IMG/VR virus record: IMGVR_UViG_3300028840_006907
Location: 64,001 to 128,000 of that record
Length of the DNA: 64,000 bases
Origin: a virus
Strand: one strand, 5' to 3'
The notes beneath the pieces are model-generated. The model was given only the letters and a program-made list of their open reading frames with translations. It was not told where the DNA came from and searched no databases. A program made the position numbers and the translations under genes. How positions within the stretch are numbered: position 1 is the stretch's first letter; each line of letters begins with the position of its first letter. Of this stretch, positions 5,301 to 63,985 are shown piece by piece.

Positions 5301-6885
5301 ACTTTCTGATTTCACTAAAATGTACAATCCGTTATCAAAGACTTTATGGTTTAGCCCAAAAACCTATGAGAAGAGAGCAGAAATTGTTACCAGTGAAGAT
5401 GATCCAGCTTTAGCTTCATTGCAAAAGAACATTGCTAAGGATACAGTTTCATTTTCAAAACTCAGCATCTTCGATAAAGAATCCATTAGATCTCTGGCAA
5501 GTACCATCCGGTCAGGTTTATCAAAATTCAAAAAGGAGTTACCAAGAATGGCCTCTTTTAATCCAATCTATTTAACAGTAGAAGAAAAAGCCCTTATGGA
5601 TAAACAAGCTAAGGAAGAAGATCACTTTGAAAAACGTGTTAAATTTGTTTTTCCTGAAGGTGAATTGAATGATGCCAAAAATATGGTAACTCAGCTCAAA
5701 GAGAAGAAATTAGATGATGCATCGAAAAAAGCTCAGAAAGAATTATCAGAATTAATTAAAAATGTCACAAGTGCCTATGATGATTTCGATATAGGTAAAA
5801 TTAAAGCATTGGCAGAAAAAGAGGAGATTTCTGAATCAAAAGCTGCTGTTCGTTTAAAAAGAATAAAAGACTCATTGGCTAAATATGCTCTAAGTCAATT
5901 CATTCTTAAGTGGCAAGATGTCATAGACATGGGATTTAAAGATACTCCAAGAAAGAAAGGACCTTTGGGAGGACCGGAATCCCAAAAATATGATAAAATT
6001 TTGGAAATAATTGAAGAGGATGTACCTGAGTTATTTAAAGAGGCTCCTCCTGAGAAAGAAATAAAAGAAGCTCCTAAAGGCTTACCTACTCCTAAGGAAA
6101 TCAGAGAACGTATCGAAATGGAATTTGAAGAAGGATTTCCAGCACAAAAAGAAAGAGAATACAGAACTCTGAAGGACAAAGGTCATAAATTATTCAAAGA
6201 TCCTTCTGGGGCTGGTGGTGGCGGTGGCGGAAAAGGTAAAAGTCGCCCAAAACCTATAAAGAAACATCCTCCTGCCCATACATATGAAACACTTAAGAGT
6301 AATTTCAAAGAAGCTCTGAAAACAAAATCAGTTCATGACATAGTACTTAGTGAAATAGGCAGGTATTTACATAATGTGAGAAATTATGTGAAAGGTGGCT
6401 CTTATTTCGATGTGGATGATGTTGTTGCTGGAGTTGTCGATGTATTGAAAAATTTTAAAAAAGTCATCAAATCATTAAGAGTAACCATGGATCCAGGAGC
6501 TACTGCAGATATAAAACTGAAAGATGAAAAAGAGGCAAAACAACTTTTTAATAAATTATCAGATATTTACAAATTAATAGATATGATTGCTGCTGATGAA
6601 AGTGGGAAACCTGTTATAAAAATAGGTCCTATACCAGGTGATCTGAGTAAGATAAAAACTCAACGTGGTGAACCCGATACCTGGTTCCCGAAAGGTCTTA
6701 TGGAAGCTGTTCAAGTAAAAAAACGAGAAGAGATTGAAGAAGGAGCAAAAGAGAAAGCTCCTGAAAAGTCAGTTTCAGCAAAAAAAGTATCAGCACAATT
6801 TTTGGCTTTTAAATTAGCACATAAGTTTTCCTTTTCAGATTTACAAAAGATTGAAGGTCTGAAAGAAGATATAGATAAAAAATAA
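2341..6885 (+). CDS. large Lys/Glu-rich coiled-coil protein (1514 aa), possibly virion-associated
   Basis: Single uninterrupted 4.5-kb ORF, GGAAGGA RBS, low-complexity charged sequence with a Gly-rich stretch. Confidence 0.55.
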   Translation: MYSIDDFIQTVFSYTLQKQKFFAAAERALKKNLQSYIRPDFFGTSSGDVRLDNLLVSLANRLGEADVEDKRIFLEDAVSDFVSEEKADELRAILETKLERKHKIPEELADKFISKSGLLVDEEKKEFDRVKKDMVKLISGFIYGFFENKFKEFVRAKKKKEDIGREVAPDLEVLPDSELIDQAEKEQEWQEGLTKDLFGYINKNVPEKRRYAYKMILLKRFMVAPASRMGFVEMAEKTGIPKSSLEEWEKDLGRRLAEYLSAGGLGPKFVSEGGLYKKDVKVPDYKDVFKNKENSNDFKDFMEGKQPKTGKPMSEKVKKILELFAEGKDTKEIESQTDASIGQIKKLKSTHFSPWYKEWYAEMLKDVREATERIKKALMIINGETPPPASHEKYVNMAIAKKYPLELTVTFSANYDNQDLIKESDRVDPEKDPVDFKYKHYQVKLERTSRPRIEYTFDQKLTDKGDFEGSPRSSLVIEGNPGHEGLRRRLDEYVEQEMKPEGILPYGPSVKGRKPVQIPVEYVNESLDSTKTYDGSKKRRYRGFIDFADKYKGFMVKDQPHLTRVQEESKREEKKLLPKGGKNEIRKLIQHLKENIGDEMEETTPDKKKVEVWKKQIKELQDHLKKDSEKEIVDFVSKHKERFKFAVSEERMKNVRELMKLRELVENQEQRLLQRKMKGDPKDKDTVKLKEDIATNKDKITKLEKILEETKEPFPPPESAKVQKLLKELSDLGIKDRKLEEFLTSTDLQFFVNQVQGALAKEAQDNIAGVKKNKNMSDEEKKQEYEAIERKRGVKLNKFIELFEAVPEDMKKRLEKYKKADPSGYKKLEKKHGALLNWVNNPEKALSKVKQNLSTPKTLEAPKGKQESVVPMEEEDAKYMLNWLEAQLQGFDVIGERFGQAALKAEGLSPQERVKVEKQLKDTEKEFQDLRNRIGEMEGKGKATTSEIKDLKKDIPTYMRTIEGLKSSLSDSKESPAMIMAQVLTDRLSDFTKMYNPLSKTLWFSPKTYEKRAEIVTSEDDPALASLQKNIAKDTVSFSKLSIFDKESIRSLASTIRSGLSKFKKELPRMASFNPIYLTVEEKALMDKQAKEEDHFEKRVKFVFPEGELNDAKNMVTQLKEKKLDDASKKAQKELSELIKNVTSAYDDFDIGKIKALAEKEEISESKAAVRLKRIKDSLAKYALSQFILKWQDVIDMGFKDTPRKKGPLGGPESQKYDKILEIIEEDVPELFKEAPPEKEIKEAPKGLPTPKEIRERIEMEFEEGFPAQKEREYRTLKDKGHKLFKDPSGAGGGGGGKGKSRPKPIKKHPPAHTYETLKSNFKEALKTKSVHDIVLSEIGRYLHNVRNYVKGGSYFDVDDVVAGVVDVLKNFKKVIKSLRVTMDPGATADIKLKDEKEAKQLFNKLSDIYKLIDMIAADESGKPVIKIGPIPGDLSKIKTQRGEPDTWFPKGLMEAVQVKKREEIEEGAKEKAPEKSVSAKKVSAQFLAFKLAHKFSFSDLQKIEGLKEDIDKK

Positions 6886-6923: not shown

Positions 6924-7682
6924 TTGGAGACATCTGTGAAGTATAGCGTACTTGTACCCTACTATAAACGCCTAGGGCACCTACATAATACCTTTATTTC
7001 CTTTCTACACCATTATTCAGATAGAAATGATTATGAGGTTGTCATAGCAGAAGATTATAAAAATGTCCAGAATAAAAAAGACCATGACGGTCTATCAGAA
7101 ACCATTGAGAAATTCCGTGAAAAAATACCGATAATTCATTTAACTCTTTCTATGGAAACCTGGAATCCAGCTCATGGTTTTAATGAAGCTGCAAAGTGGG
7201 CTTCTGGTGAATATTTCGTTGTAACCAATCCAGAATGTTTCCATCAAGTGAACATACTGGCTGGACTCGATAAAGAATTTGAAGAAGACCCCAATGTCTA
7301 TGTTGTATGTGGTTGTATGAATTATGTCCGTTGTAATTTTTTTATTAAAAACTTTAATGATCTAAATGGAAAATTTCAGAGATGGTACCAACACTCAATA
7401 CATAGAGCAGCCCACTATCATTTCTGTTCAGCTATTTCAAAACAGAATTGGGTAAAAATAGGAGGATTCGATGAAGACTTTGCTATGGGTATAGCCTATG
7501 ATGATGTCGATTTTAAATTAAGCATTCAAAAAGCCAAGATACCCTTTCATATCCGGGATGACCTTCTTACTATACATATTGACCATGGTTCCTTCCCATC
7601 TCCTCCAAATGCTCAGAAATTAGTTAATCGAAATAGAATCACCTATCAAAGAAAATGGGAAGGAAGTAATGAATCTTACTAG
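6924..7682 (+). CDS. putative glycosyltransferase-like protein
   Basis: 252-aa ORF with non-ATG start (TTG 6924 or GTG 6936); weak GT-A-like features only. Confidence 0.35.
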   Translation: METSVKYSVLVPYYKRLGHLHNTFISFLHHYSDRNDYEVVIAEDYKNVQNKKDHDGLSETIEKFREKIPIIHLTLSMETWNPAHGFNEAAKWASGEYFVVTNPECFHQVNILAGLDKEFEEDPNVYVVCGCMNYVRCNFFIKNFNDLNGKFQRWYQHSIHRAAHYHFCSAISKQNWVKIGGFDEDFAMGIAYDDVDFKLSIQKAKIPFHIRDDLLTIHIDHGSFPSPPNAQKLVNRNRITYQRKWEGSNESY

Positions 7683-9762
7683 TTATACCGCAGCCGACAG
7701 TATCCCGATAAAATTGATTAAGAACTTTAAATTGTTAAAGTCCATGACAACAAAAGGAGTCATCTTACCAATCCATGTCCAGTTCATACCCACAAATAGA
7801 TGTAACATGAAATGTGGATTTTGTAGCTGTGCTGAAGATGACAGAAAAACAGAAATGTCCCTTAAAAATGCTAAGAAGATCATCAGAAAATTAAAAAAAC
7901 TCGGTACTCAATCCGTAACCATCACCGGAGGAGGAGAACCACTCCTTTATCCTCATCTCCAAGAATTGTTTTCTCTGTTTAAAGATGCCGGGATAAAAAT
8001 CGGTTTTGTTACCAATGGCCTCTTATTAGGTAAATGTACCTATGAAGATGTAACCTGGTGTCGGATTTCTAATTCTGATGAAAGAAAAATGGACATGGAC
8101 TATTATCACACAATAGCTTATGCTGTTGAAGATAACCCAAACGTGGACTGGGCCTTTAGTCATGTCGTTTCTCCAAAACCAAATATCTCCGAAATAAAAC
8201 GGATCATAGAATTTGCCAATCTCCATGATTTTACCCATGTCCGATTAGTAGCTGATCTATTGAATTATAAAGAAGTAGATTTAATGCAGTTAAAAATCAC
8301 TCTTCGAGATGAAAATGTCGATGATGATAAAGTCATCTATCAAAGTAGAAATACCCCGCTCAGAGGCGGAGACTGTTATATATGCTATCTTAAACCCATG
8401 ATAGGGGCTGACTGTAATGTGTACGCTTGTTGTTTAGAGGCTAATGAACCTGTATTAATCCAGAGAAATAACGAAAGGATGTATTTATCTATAAAGGATG
8501 TTGTTCCAGGGGATTATGCTTGTGAATATGGAAAGATTTTAAATGTGTTTCATAAAGAGGGTGAAGAAGGCTTGGAAATAGTTTTGCAAAATAATAGGAC
8601 TATTTATGTTTCGAAAGATCATCTTATGCTTAAATTGACAAACCCTGAAATTAGACATAAGAGAAAGAAGTTATTATCTGACTATGAATTAGATACAATA
8701 GAATCTTCTGAATTAAGAATTGGAGATTTACTTCCGGTCAAATATAAATATGATATTAGTGAAATAAAAGAAGATACTATATCTGAAGAAGAAGCAGAAT
8801 TAATAGGATATTATGTAGCTGAAGGTTGGTCCAATGAACGAACTTGTATAGTTGATAAAAAATATCCTACTAGAACTACCACTATAGGATTTATGCTAGG
8901 GAAAGAGTCAAGAGAATATATAAGAAGATTTGAAGAAATTTGTGATATTTTGAATCTAAATTTTTCTATGACTGAACGTAGAACTGGTATGCAGTATCAG
9001 ATAGGTGCACATAAACCCTACGATGACTTAATTGTACACTGTGGTAATAAAGCAGAATTAAAAAAGATCCCTCCTTTTATTTTAAACGGCTCTGATAAAA
9101 TAAAGTGGAAATTTATTCAAGGCTATTTTGGAGGTGACGGGAATTTTCAAACTCCTTCTAAAAGCTATGATGGTTTTAAAATGAGAATGAGTACTGTCAG
9201 TAGACAACTAGCTAATGATATAATTTATCTCTTTTGTACTTTAAATATTCATGCTTCTATGAGAGTTGAGAGACGTGAAGGAAAAATGATAATAGAAGGA
9301 AGAGAGGTAAATGCTAAAGATCGGTATCATATAAATATAGGGGGAGCCTATAATTTAGAAAAAGCCCCATTCCTAAATGTAATTCAAACAAAAGAAAGAA
9401 GTCCTAAAAGAGCCCTCGGTTTTTTGAAAGATGAGGATAAGGGCATTATGTTTGTACCAGTTAAAGAGATCAGAGAGAAAAAGTTAGGAAAATTAGTAGA
9501 CATTCAAGTGGAAGGTTCAAATAAATTTATATCTTCATTTGGTATAATAGTTCATAATTGTGGCGTCCAGTATGCTCTTAAAAAGCCTTCAAAGAATCTT
9601 CCTAAGAAACTGAGCCTAGGAAGTGCTTTTGATCTTGAGAAGATAATTGAGAACAGTAATAAGCCCCTGGACGGGAGCATGTGTTATCGATGCTATTATA
9701 GTAATTATAACAAGATACTAGGATCCATCCTGGATGATACCGATCATATGGAGTTTGTATGA
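7669..9762 (+). CDS. radical SAM protein interrupted by an intein
   Basis: CNMKCGFC (CxxxCxxC) Fe-S motif near N-terminus; about 376-aa insertion with intein hallmarks. Confidence 0.7.
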   Translation: MNLTSYTAADSIPIKLIKNFKLLKSMTTKGVILPIHVQFIPTNRCNMKCGFCSCAEDDRKTEMSLKNAKKIIRKLKKLGTQSVTITGGGEPLLYPHLQELFSLFKDAGIKIGFVTNGLLLGKCTYEDVTWCRISNSDERKMDMDYYHTIAYAVEDNPNVDWAFSHVVSPKPNISEIKRIIEFANLHDFTHVRLVADLLNYKEVDLMQLKITLRDENVDDDKVIYQSRNTPLRGGDCYICYLKPMIGADCNVYACCLEANEPVLIQRNNERMYLSIKDVVPGDYACEYGKILNVFHKEGEEGLEIVLQNNRTIYVSKDHLMLKLTNPEIRHKRKKLLSDYELDTIESSELRIGDLLPVKYKYDISEIKEDTISEEEAELIGYYVAEGWSNERTCIVDKKYPTRTTTIGFMLGKESREYIRRFEEICDILNLNFSMTERRTGMQYQIGAHKPYDDLIVHCGNKAELKKIPPFILNGSDKIKWKFIQGYFGGDGNFQTPSKSYDGFKMRMSTVSRQLANDIIYLFCTLNIHASMRVERREGKMIIEGREVNAKDRYHINIGGAYNLEKAPFLNVIQTKERSPKRALGFLKDEDKGIMFVPVKEIREKKLGKLVDIQVEGSNKFISSFGIIVHNCGVQYALKKPSKNLPKKLSLGSAFDLEKIIENSNKPLDGSMCYRCYYSNYNKILGSILDDTDHMEFV
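8431..9558 (+). mobile_element. intein with LAGLIDADG-type homing endonuclease domain
   Basis: Starts with Cys (CLEANEP), block-B-like SKDH, LAGLIDADG-like LIGYYVAEGW and FIQGYFGGDGNF, ends IIVHN followed by Cys. Confidence 0.6.
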
Positions 9763-47872: not shown

Positions 47873-48282
47873 TGGAGGTGAGGAGAGTTGAACTCCTGTC
47901 CGCGAAGGTATCTTGAGTAAACCTCTACATGTTTAGTCTATGGTTTAAATCTTATTCATAATCACGTTCACAGACAAACTTAATTAAGAACCAGTCTCTA
48001 GTCTCATTCATTGGTCAAGACTCCTCAATGAACCAGAACCCGTTTGGCTATCCGGAATTAACAGGGTTCAGTTAAAACCGGATTTGTCGTTTTTTGTTTA
48101 AACGACGGCTTCTTCTGCTTGATGAATAGCAGCAAGGTTAAGTGCTGAAAACATCGCACAGAAGTTAACTGTATTAGTTTTTTCAGTTATTATTGAAATC
48201 GGCTTTTTTACGAGGCCAACCGATTAACCTCGACATGCAGTTTACATTTCAACTCATCACGTCGAAAACCAAGTACACCCCC
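47873..48282 (-). ncRNA. ssrA: tmRNA (SsrA)
   Basis: Minus strand starts GGGGGUGUACUUGGUUUUCGACG, has GCAUGUCGAGG...GGUUGGCCUCGUAAAAAAGCCG, ends GGACAGGAGUUCAACUCUCCUCACCUCCA; 620-bp ORF-free gap. Confidence 0.65.
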
Positions 48283-54689: not shown

Positions 54690-54765
54690 GGGCCGGAATG
54701 TTCCAAGGGGGCGAGAATGCCTTGCAAGCAATCTGCGGTGAGTTCGATTCTCACTCGGTCCACCA
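54690..54765 (+). tRNA. tRNA-Ala (anticodon TGC), CCA encoded
   Basis: G3-U70 wobble in acceptor stem, loop CTTGCAA, T-arm GTGAG TTCGATT CTCAC. Confidence 0.6.
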
Positions 54766-62255: not shown

Positions 62256-62344
62256 GGAAGGGAGCCAGATATTGGTTAGCTGGGGCTGTCTGCTAAACAG
62301 TTGTTCTATAAGGACTTAGGGTTCAATTCCCTATCCTTCCGCCA
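62256..62344 (+). tRNA. tRNA-Ser (anticodon GCT), CCA encoded
   Basis: Loop CTGCTAA, long variable arm, T-arm TAGGG TTCAATT CCCTA. Confidence 0.6.
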
Positions 62345-62767: not shown

Positions 62768-62845
62768 GGCCGAGTGGTGAAGTTGTTTTAACACGGTAGT
62801 CTGCAAAACTATTATGCGTCGGTTAGAATCCGACCTCGGCCTCCA
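62768..62845 (+). tRNA. tRNA-Cys (anticodon GCA), CCA encoded
   Basis: GGCCGAG/CTCGGCC acceptor, loop CTGCAAA, T-loop TTAGAAT. Confidence 0.55.
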
Positions 62846-62861
62846 GTTCTTTGAAATAAAT

Positions 62862-63061
62862 AAGTATATCGAGTCCACGCGCAGATGTTAAGTCTGTGAG
62901 GAAGCTCAGGACATCACCGCTGACGGAAGGAGACGTAAGTCGTAGGTACTTCCTAGGATGCAACACAAACAGACCTATGCCGGTGAGCGGGGCTATGATG
63001 GTCGGGTTAGTGGCAAAGATAAATGTGGACATAAAACAGAATCCTGGCTACGGATATACTT
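62862..63061 (+). ncRNA. candidate structured RNA with RNase P-like P1/P4 motifs (about 200 nt)
   Basis: No ORF, locally GC-richer; GAGGAAGCUCAGG and ACAGAAUCCUGGCU can pair with a bulged U; terminal helix AAGTATATC/GATATACTT. Confidence 0.3.
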
Positions 63062-63068
63062 ATTATAC

Positions 63069-63175
63069 GGAGAGGTAGGTTTAATTGGTAAAATCAGTGC
63101 TTTGCACAGCACCTAAGCTAGCAAGGTGCCATTCCAGGGATGGATTTCGGGGTTCAAGTCCCCGTCTCTCTGCCA
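63069..63175 (+). other. oversized tRNA-like element (107 nt) with canonical T-arm and CCA end
   Basis: GGAGAGG/TCTCTCT acceptor, D-loop with GG, GCA-anticodon-like loop, 34-nt extra region, T-arm CGGGG TTCAAGT CCCCG. Confidence 0.35.
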
Positions 63176-63186
63176 ATAAATTATAC

Positions 63187-63275
63187 GGAGGTAGACCGGC
63201 TGGACGAGGAGCCTGTCTTGAAAACAGGTAGGGCTGTAAAAGGTCTTCGGGGTTCAAGTCCTCGTGCCTCCGCCA
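63187..63275 (+). tRNA. tRNA-Ser (anticodon TGA), CCA encoded
   Basis: Stem CCTGT/ACAGG, loop CTTGAAA, long variable arm. Confidence 0.6.
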
Positions 63276-63352
63276 TAAAAACAATAGTTATCAAAAGGTA
63301 ACTATAAGTTCTTTGACATTTCGGTTATTATGAAGTAAGCACATATTTATAT

Positions 63353-63459: not shown

Positions 63460-63549
63460 GAGTAGGAGGTCAGATAGTGGTTGGCTGCACCGGACTGTAA
63501 ATCCGGATCTCGTAAAGGGACGCTGGGGGTTCGACGCCCTCCCTACTCA
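63460..63549 (+). tRNA. tRNA-Tyr (anticodon GTA)
   Basis: GAGTAGG/CCTACTC acceptor, stem CCGGA/TCCGG, loop CTGTAAA, long variable arm. Confidence 0.65.
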
Positions 63550-63563
63550 TTTGTCAATTTTAT

Positions 63564-63649
63564 GGAGAGCAACCGAATGGTTAGGAGGCGGTTTCGAAAA
63601 CCGTTAAGGCTGAAAGGCTAACTAAGTTCGATTCTTAGGCTCTCCGCCA
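63564..63649 (+). tRNA. tRNA-Ser (anticodon CGA), CCA encoded
   Basis: GGAGAGC/GCTCTCC acceptor, loop TTCGAAA, long variable arm. Confidence 0.6.
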
Positions 63650-63985
63650 TTAACAAACAGATTTTAAAAAAGATGATGCTACTCTTTTAATTGCTTCTTT
63701 ATCGGCGTTTTCCATTTGATTAACAATTTTTTTGGCCCAGGTATATCCAGAATCACCTCCCCAAACAAGCCATGCTACATAACCTTTATCTTTCCATGGT
63801 TCATTTTTATATTCTGGGTTTATCTTTTTATTCTTTTGATGACGGTCGAAGAAAGCTTTCATTCTTTTGACTGTTTTGGGAGATAAAATATCTCTGTTTT
63901 TAAGATTAACAGCTCTTTGAACACCAGACCCAACACCTTCTGCTTTTGCCTGTTCAACTGTTAGTCCTCCTTTACCACCGGCCAT
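63650..63985 (-). CDS. hypothetical protein
   Basis: 111-aa ORF; start 15 nt from window end so RBS not visible. Confidence 0.4.
   Translation of the reverse strand: MAGGKGGLTVEQAKAEGVGSGVQRAVNLKNRDILSPKTVKRMKAFFDRHQKNKKINPEYKNEPWKDKGYVAWLVWGGDSGYTWAKKIVNQMENADKEAIKRVASSFLKSVC

Follow-up and report, generated by a model that had tools for sequence, protein, structure and literature searches.

Enlarged anticodon loops and interrupted anticodon arms are known in transfer RNAs (tRNAs) of several kinds. Loops expanded to 8–9 nucleotides (nt) occur in frameshift and quadruplet suppressors, often engineered on tRNA-Ser scaffolds, and tRNA introns in bacteria and phages are ribozymes of the group I type, longer than 200 nt. 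The element considered here is a 107-nt tRNA-like gene at 63069–63175 (+) of a 64,000-nt stretch of viral DNA (positions 64,001 to 128,000 of IMG/VR record IMGVR_UViG_3300028840_006907; hereafter, the window). Its nearest known kin are serine tRNAs of the family GGAGRG-TAGGATAATTGGTAATCC, carried by huge-phage contigs (L081, L094, L108, L134 and L136). Element and family share a 7/5 architecture of acceptor and T stems, the D loop AATTGGTA, a short GNRA-capped variable hairpin, GGUGC as the 3′ strand of the anticodon stem, G73 and an encoded CCA. The element departs from the family in having an anticodon loop of 23 nt rather than 7 nt, with no serine anticodon in a canonical loop, a G1·U72 instead of a G1–C72 pair, a D stem of 5 base pairs (bp) and a variable arm longer by 3 nt. 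Judged by alignment and covariance modelling, it is a class II tRNA-Ser-family gene with a 16-nt surplus in its anticodon loop. With moderate confidence, we read this gene as a redundant tRNA-Ser paralogue, disabled for decoding and likely heading towards a pseudogene, left over after the serine tRNA set of the phage was replaced.

Family membership is carried by a covariance model (R1) built from 12 tRNA-Ser genes of relatives, with the element excluded. The relatives were obtained via the flanking R2K/ATP-grasp protein and a motif of the RNA that lies upstream of the element, and are labelled L001–L136. R1 matches 63069–63175 from end to end, far beyond chance (model positions 1–86; 51.6 bits, E ~1e-11), without flagging any non-standard pair, and gives lower scores to two of the window's own genes, tRNA-Ser(GCT) (48.2 bits) and tRNA-Ser(TGA) (40.9 bits). 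This bears out one suggestion of the initial annotation, a duplicated pseudo-tRNA related to tRNA-Ser. The element keeps 32 of the 35 family-invariant columns (the window's other class II tRNAs keep 23–26), C72→U being one of the three lost. Alignment to tRNA-Ser and tRNA-Cys genes places it with the former: the nearest sequences are the tRNA-Ser(GCT) genes of L134, L136 and L081 (73–76% identity), and no tRNA-Cys is found among its 25 nearest tRNAs. Every member of the Ser family carries G73 followed by CCA, whereas true tRNA-Cys genes, in the window and in L081, end in T-CCA (U73).

General-purpose tools agree on where the element begins and ends. The Rfam tRNA model (RF00005) scores it at 30.1 bits over 63069–63172 (model positions 1–71), above but close to the gathering score of 29 bits, and this borderline value is due to the insertions; the E-value is 0.03 over the 64-kb window and 5e-4 locally. 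ARAGORN misses the element by default. Run with introns allowed (-i), it recovers the same bounds but attaches the label tRNA-Cys(GCA), with an 11-nt intron (i(40,11)), so that the intron option finds the gene and names it wrongly. The bounds and length given by the initial annotation are therefore the same in the sequence, the Rfam model and ARAGORN -i, tools that might have shifted the boundaries or seen no tRNA at all.

The body of the element is that of a tRNA, and its acceptor stem, D loop with GG, canonical T arm and encoded CCA are all as initially described. The 7-bp acceptor stem pairs GGAGAGG (63069–63075, +) with TCTCTCT (63165–63171, +), with wobbles at G1·U72 and G7·U66. The D arm, GGTTT-AATTGGTA-AAATC (63078–63095, +), has a 5-bp stem and G18 G19 in its loop; the stem holds one base more on each side, that is, 1 bp more, than in the relatives. 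The variable region (63130–63147, +) contains a class II Ser-type hairpin, UCCA-GGGA-UGGA (63133–63144), closed by a GNRA loop, with pair probabilities of 0.65–0.74, and the arm exceeds those of the relatives by 3 nt. The T arm, CGGGG-TTCAAGT-CCCCG (63148–63164, +), pairs with probabilities of 0.92–1.0. Discriminator G73 and CCA, read from the sequence, close the gene (63172–63175, +).

The surplus lies in the anticodon arm. Both R1 and MAFFT alignments place the 5′ strand of the stem at GUGCU (63097–63101, +), which pairs with GGUGC (63125–63129, +) as G–C, U·G, G·U, C–G and U·G; the 3′ strand is the same as in the tRNA-Ser(GCT) of L081 and L134. Between them lies a loop of 23 nt, UUGCACAGCACCUAAGCUAGCAA (63102–63124, +), which amounts to the canonical 7 nt plus 16 nt. 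MAFFT finds the element colinear with the tRNA-Ser genes of relatives except for a single 17-nt block in this loop (CACAGCACCTAAGCTAG, 63105–63121), the D-stem bases and 3 nt of the variable arm, and Infernal, aligning to R1, independently assigns the surplus to the anticodon loop, with 19 nt in place of three expected loop positions. The full length is accounted for as 86 nt plus 16 (anticodon loop), 2 (D stem) and 3 (variable arm). These three gains, of 16 nt, one D-stem pair and 3 variable-arm nt, appear to be confined to this lineage.

Folding does not restore a decoding loop. The main state of the ensemble (~73%) extends the arm as GUGCU(UUGC)/(GCAA)GGUGC, giving 9+3 bp and a 6-nt loop, and the second (~26%) forms a GCACC/GGUGC hairpin with an 11-nt loop; both preserve the Ser-type variable hairpin. 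A 7-nt anticodon loop is absent from every competitive fold (three local folds evaluated), the alternatives offering loops of 6 nt or 11 nt. Nor does the element hold a serine anticodon (GCU, UGA, CGA or GGA) in a 7-nt loop with U33. The element is therefore presumably unable to decode codons as an ordinary tRNA does. The central CUA of the 11-nt loop in the minor fold raised the idea of an amber suppressor, rejected because the window has no recoding signal: 76% of its length is covered by standard-code frames of 100 codons or more, and long open reading frames (ORFs) terminate in each of TAA, TGA and TAG.

In the relatives, a conserved block runs Phe-Ile-R2K-Leu-Lys-Lys-Ser(GCT)-Cys-[RNase P-like RNA]-Ser(TGA)-His-Tyr-Ser(CGA), where the bracketed gene is a ribonuclease P (RNase P)-like RNA discussed below. 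The block is kept in L081, L095, L096, L094, L105, L107, L108, L134, L135 and L136, with L135 lacking the RNase P-like RNA. Where the window has the element, L108, L107, L094, L134, L136, L135 and L081 have an ordinary tRNA-Ser(TGA) of 84–86 nt. This gene abuts the RNase P-like RNA directly in L108, L094 and L136 (whose contig stops within it); in L134, the closest relative with a contig that extends past the RNase P-like RNA, a tRNA-Ser(TGA) of a new type comes straight after. The functional Ser genes of the window (those starting at 62256, 63187 and 63564, and a Ser(GGA) beyond it) differ in sequence type from the 'old-type' genes of most relatives. Together they form a second, complete Ser set, three of them (GCT, TGA and CGA) lying inside the window and the fourth (GGA) just past its end. 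L134 and L135 mix old and new types (L134 2626–2709, L135 1419–1503); the window has new-type genes only, plus the element as a disabled old-type copy. Across closely related phages, then, two unrelated tRNA-Ser types fill identical syntenic slots.

This pattern indicates a recent replacement of isoacceptor genes inside a conserved array. The element appears closest to the relatives' tRNA-Ser(GCU) and would belong to their old-type class II Ser family, and the most fitting view is that it is the sole old-type copy remaining after the Ser set of its lineage was replaced. It is redundant because a functional-looking new-type tRNA-Ser(TGA) stands at 63187–63275. At or near the same slot, relatives carry ORFs between their tRNA genes (L134 2728–3195, L081 ~7440–7860, L094 ~7880–8340). 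That of L134 matches the Pfam family HNH_3, and those of L081 and L094 were judged by eye; such inserted ORFs of homing-endonuclease type fit with endonuclease-driven turnover in a recombination-prone region.

An exact 11-nt repeat, ATTATACGGAG, running from the leader through positions +1 to +4, occurs at 63062 (element) and at 63180 (tRNA-Ser(TGA)), and the two genes are 83% identical across their 3′ 35 nt; this repeat and the 3′ identity suggest local duplication or gene conversion. They are also the true links between the two genes: the likeness noted initially between their first 15 nt exists (GGAG..GTAG) but is weak. As for the insertion itself, it is plausible by eye that part of the anticodon arm (CAGYRCYU..GC) was duplicated locally, though this is not demonstrated. 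The inserted block has no second copy within the window, and on the strength of this single occurrence we rejected both a mobile mini-element and a block simply copied from another part of the window.

No homologue of the element was found among the ~135 related loci (L001–L136), in IMG/VR or in GTDB. Searches by blastn covered 81 loci collected via a downstream 111-residue ORF and the R2K protein, 10 loci with the RNase P motif, 40 metagenome loci and three further contigs, and matched only the T-arm and acceptor portions of ordinary Ser tRNAs. Exact-pattern scans with the insertion gave no match in IMG/VR (33-mer) or in GTDB representative genomes (25-mer). Wider searches returned no relatives among GenBank phages (blastn) and, among 5.8 billion proteins, none above 84% identity.

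If the element is a leftover of this kind, its fate can be sketched. It would be co-transcribed with the tRNA array: no terminator stands out between the genes, the promoter and terminator scan of the locus (generic sigma-70 for promoters) performing no better than on shuffled sequences, and the array is therefore presumably one transcript. RNase P would be expected to cut at 63068/63069, the 5′ end of the element, because the acceptor/T-arm minihelix is intact, and the same cut would both free the element and give the RNase P-like RNA upstream its 3′ end. The product that accumulates would probably be L-shaped, with an anticodon arm of excessive length. Seryl-tRNA synthetase (SerRS) might still charge it, since this enzyme recognises the variable arm and acceptor, not the anticodon.

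Several observations sit uneasily with decay. Outside the loop the body is intact, with all stems paired, the bases of tertiary interactions conserved and CCA present, so that the insertion must be recent unless selection still acts on the folded body. The 5′ strand of the anticodon stem differs from that of the L081 and L134 tRNA-Ser(GCT) at four positions, all of them transitions that preserve pairing with GGUGC; the D stem has gained a complete pair; and the variable hairpin retains its GNRA loop. A decaying pseudogene need not show such compensatory-looking changes. The case is, moreover, drawn from a single copy of the element and from its sequence.

Other parses of the surplus fare worse. 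The initial annotation had closed the anticodon arm as GTGCT/AGCAC around a 7-nt loop, TTGCACA, taken as GCA-anticodon-like (GCA being a cysteine anticodon), which left a 34-nt extra or variable segment. The stem GUGCU/AGCAC is perfectly Watson–Crick, its loop includes U-U-G-C-A, and the Rfam tRNA model aligns the anticodon arm in just this way. The loop is nevertheless one of 6 nt, as one A had been counted twice (GTGCT, TTGCAC and AGCAC make 16 nt). The hairpin has a pairing probability of ~0.2%, lies ~8 kcal/mol above the best cloverleaf and strands GGUGCC unpaired despite its homology to the family's anticodon-stem 3′ strand. Homology and thermodynamics both pair GUGCU with GGUGC, and the 34-nt segment is a misparse of a surplus that sits in the anticodon loop. 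U73 is a major determinant for cysteinyl-tRNA synthetase, but where real tRNA-Cys has U73 and, as a class I tRNA, a short variable loop, the element carries G73 and a long arm; with no tRNA-Cys near it either, we hold a cysteine tRNA of this shape to be very improbable. An intron of ~11–16 nt in the anticodon loop, spliced out to leave a functional tRNA, is improbable too. ARAGORN sees the element only as an intron-bearing gene, archaeal tRNA introns can be that short, and removal of 16 nt can yield UUGCAAA (GCA), UUGCCAA (GCC) or UUGGCAA (GGC), all with U33 and A37. An exhaustive scan of the arm, however, found no full hBHBh′ (bulge–helix–bulge, BHB) motif, in which two 3-nt bulges flank a 4-bp helix between two outer helices, and only one partial hBH, in an implausible register, and a surplus of 16–17 nt is far below the group I ribozyme core (P3–P9) of ~200 nt or more. 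The eight possible clean 16-nt excisions give Ala, Gly or Cys loops and never Ser, so that a spliced product would be a Ser-bodied, G73-bearing mistranslator. The ARAGORN solution also requires the stem to accommodate a G·A mismatch and the variable region to span 23 nt, and the relatives have no intron at this position. Of the initial proposal of a tRNA with an insertion or intron, the insertion stands, as a 16-nt surplus in a Ser body, and the intron falls. We give scarcely any credence to an origin of the element in faulty assembly or sequencing, for instance through a chimeric join within a tRNA-Ser gene. The element is a singleton, seen in this genome only, as an artefact would be; yet it lies in 12,258 bp that are identical in a separate Logan assembly (SRR6963591, possibly from the same sample), and an assembly error would not be expected to produce the independent, compensated changes that accompany the surplus in both the D stem and the variable arm.

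A functional but non-decoding tRNA-like RNA is the alternative that deserves most attention, although we think it unlikely. The element might serve, through its acceptor/T-arm/CCA module, as a handle that RNase P recognises and that sets the 3′ end of the phage RNase P-like RNA upstream, or as the cis substrate of that RNA; its altered anticodon arm might act as a decoy for, or a resistant mimic against, host anticodon nucleases; or it might be a serine donor outside translation. The intact body and compensatory-looking changes described above speak for it, and mascRNA offers a precedent for 3′-end formation that depends on RNase P. The RNase P-like RNA is followed by a tRNA within ~2–20 nt not only in the window but also in L108, L094, L134, L136, L090, L082 and L087. 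Further reported precedents are a non-translating pseudo-tRNA of Bacillus cereus, 'tRNA-Other' (PMC3399842), and phage tRNAs that evade tRNA-targeting defences (PMC11555353). Against such a role, a handle is dispensable, as ordinary tRNAs do the same in the relatives and the window has another tRNA 11 nt downstream; the 16-nt segment is conserved nowhere else in IMG/VR, GTDB or the related loci; and no defence-related or partner gene was identified. A compound version is doubtful: an element kept as a processed, possibly serylated, non-decoding RNA that would be at once a handle or tethered cis substrate for the phage RNase P RNA and a nuclease decoy or resistant arm. A disabled Ser paralogue remains our preferred account.

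The RNase P-like RNA immediately upstream is potentially the more remarkable feature of the locus. It occupies 62859–63064 (+), is ~200 nt long and consists of a catalytic domain only, as indicated by the RF00373 match (46.8 bits, E 7.8e-12, under the gathering score of 84), an inverted repeat and covariation. RNase P RNA models match it over their full length apart from the specificity domain, which is deleted and replaced by a short hairpin. A perfect 12-bp inverted repeat (62859–62870/63053–63064) forms the terminal helix, which ends 4 nt before +1 of the element, the spacer being ATAC (63065–63068). A 17-nt core motif retrieved ten more viral contigs, nine with a real copy, and blastn added further copies from metagenomes and ENA. 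Homologues lie at L081 ~7102–7436, L094 ~7311–7546, L108 ~6499–6712, L134 ~2408–2608, L136 ~2192–2430, L090 2169–2377, L082 2970–3162, L083 896–1104 (−) and L088 3202–3405 (−), with others in L085, L086, L087 and L089. All copies score below the Rfam RNase P thresholds (28–50 bits in the other phages, against gathering scores of 84–100). In the contigs found by the 17-nt motif and in the close relatives, every copy shares its locus with tRNA genes.

Two motifs of these RNAs, CR-I and CR-V (GAGGAAGCUCAGGAC and ACAGAAUCCUGGCU), show no variation among the 12 aligned phage copies and can form P4 with a bulged U (a pairing read by eye). Among the same 12 copies, 15 of the 29 predicted pairs show compensatory double changes, distributed over P1, P2 and two hairpins and mostly in P1 and P2. 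A scan of genome contigs with the 17-mer gave 120 chance matches, none of which had the second core motif. A putative, conserved RNase P-like RNA of ~200 nt, devoid of the specificity domain, recurs in the tRNA arrays of many huge phages, and 62859–63064 could be a phage-encoded minimal tRNA-processing ribozyme. We found no description of a phage-encoded RNase P RNA in the literature that could be searched; one megaphage paper reports tRNAs and a transfer-messenger RNA (tmRNA) as all that it detected. The closest natural analogue is the archaeal type T RNase P RNA of Pyrobaculum (PMC13462272), which likewise has no specificity domain and measures ~200 nt. With type T and with the catalytic domain of bacterial type A, the phage RNA shares CR-I, CR-V, P1, P2 and P4 with its bulged U. 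It differs from both in being phage-encoded, located inside tRNA arrays, equipped with bacterial-like motifs and sub-threshold in all Rfam RNase P families.

Other structured RNAs were seen in these loci. Among the contigs with the RNase P motif, L090 has a tmRNA (1020–1390), and L088 has a GOLLD RNA inside its tRNA array (7430–7900, −; 191.6 bits). In L081 (8219–8292), L094 (8527–8603) and L108 (~7070–7170), tRNA-Tyr is followed by a conserved stretch of ~75 nt that includes TTGCCCATTTACGACC. A long stem, AACCGAGA...TCTCGGTT, encloses this stretch, and a T run comes next. Nothing in Rfam matches the stretch, and the window lacks it.

The window belongs to a phage sequence of 469,617 bp (GCA_016840655.1, JAEORW010000001.1) with at least 25 tRNA genes and a tmRNA, and the phage is therefore a huge phage. 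The tmRNA lies in the window at 47873–48282 (−; 159.9 bits; tag end ...QAEEAVV). Around the element the tRNA array is dense. Upstream are tRNA-Ser(GCT) (62256–62344), after which come two small ORFs, and tRNA-Cys(GCA) (62768–62845), which precedes the RNase P-like RNA; downstream, the new-type tRNA-Ser(TGA) (+) begins 11 nt beyond the element and is followed by tRNA-His, tRNA-Tyr and tRNA-Ser(CGA). A default ARAGORN run skips three likely tRNA genes of the window: tRNA-Tyr(GTA) (63463–63549), tRNA-Ser(CGA) (63564–63650) and tRNA-Ala(TGC) (54690–54765). These were regained by lowered thresholds, by sub-threshold scores of the Rfam tRNA-Sec model or by R1 (53.4 bits for Ser(CGA)). The motif AGTTCTTTGA(A/C)AT precedes the RNase P-like RNA and tRNA-His alike, both in the window (62845–62857 and 63307–63319) and in relatives (L081 ~7094 and ~7955; L108 ~6488 and ~6808; L094 ~7680). 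It could function as a promoter or as a signal for processing, and was missed by the generic sigma-70 scan.

Taken alone, a lineage-specific and probably disabled copy of a tRNA-Ser gene carries little weight. It does illustrate how fast tRNA arrays can turn over in huge phages, with two unrelated Ser types swapped within one syntenic block, and it is a caution for annotation, as ARAGORN skips the element by default and mislabels it as tRNA-Cys in intron mode. Should the RNase P-like RNA be active, phages would possess a minimal tRNA-processing ribozyme of their own, and the tRNA or tRNA-like gene right behind it, here the element, would join in the maturation of that RNA.

Beyond the huge-phage Ser family, known RNAs resemble the element in part. 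Our literature search found nothing on tRNAs with comparable insertions in the anticodon loop. tRNA-Sec, the allo-tRNAs and selC-like tRNA-Cys are similarly long-armed and SerRS-type, and share with the element a possible non-Ser triplet, GCA; tRNA-Sec (selenocysteine) and allo-tRNAs have 8/5, 9/4 or 8/4 geometries, a 6-bp D stem and UCA or another anticodon in a 7-nt loop, whereas the element is 7/5 and has no 7-nt loop. In clan competition RF00005, not RF01852, is reported for the element, which lacks the defining features of tRNA-Sec and allo-tRNAs. A tRNA-Sec-like gene does occur in a relative: a 99-nt gene with anticodon TCA at L081 8313–8411, identical in L095 and L096, lies between tRNA-Tyr and tRNA-Ser(CGA), scores 64.3 bits with RF01852 (gathering score 47) and is called tRNA-SeC by ARAGORN. 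Its role in the phage could be to decode UGA or to act as a Sec tRNA; the matching position in the window is empty. Oversized tRNAs of other families were also seen, namely tRNA-Ile(UAU) of 92–93 nt (L085 7445–7536 (−), L088 4106–4197 (−) and L089 528–620 (+); Rfam 57–64 bits) and tRNA-Lys(UUU) of 91 nt (L083 247–337 (−); Rfam tRNA 53 bits). Their long, class II-like variable arms are unusual for those amino-acid families, and their anticodon loops have 7 nt; because these loops are normal, we rejected them as instances of the same phenomenon.

Suppressor tRNAs with expanded loops are like the element in combining a Ser-type scaffold, a synthetase blind to the anticodon and an enlarged loop. 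A loop of 23 nt, or 11 nt in the minor fold, is well outside known decoding loops, and the window gave no evidence of recoding or frameshift sites. tRNAs with archaeal bulge–helix–bulge mini-introns or bacterial group I introns have, like the element, an interrupted anticodon loop, and the surplus is within the length range of mini-introns. It differs from both in having no BHB motif, in being too short for group I, in that its excision cannot restore the family anticodon and in that the relatives are without the insert. Pseudo- or degenerate tRNAs such as the tRNA-Other of B. cereus (PMC3399842) are likewise tRNA-derived cloverleaves that are not expected to take part in normal decoding. The element differs from them in carrying one discrete surplus of 16 nt in the loop of an otherwise near-perfect body.

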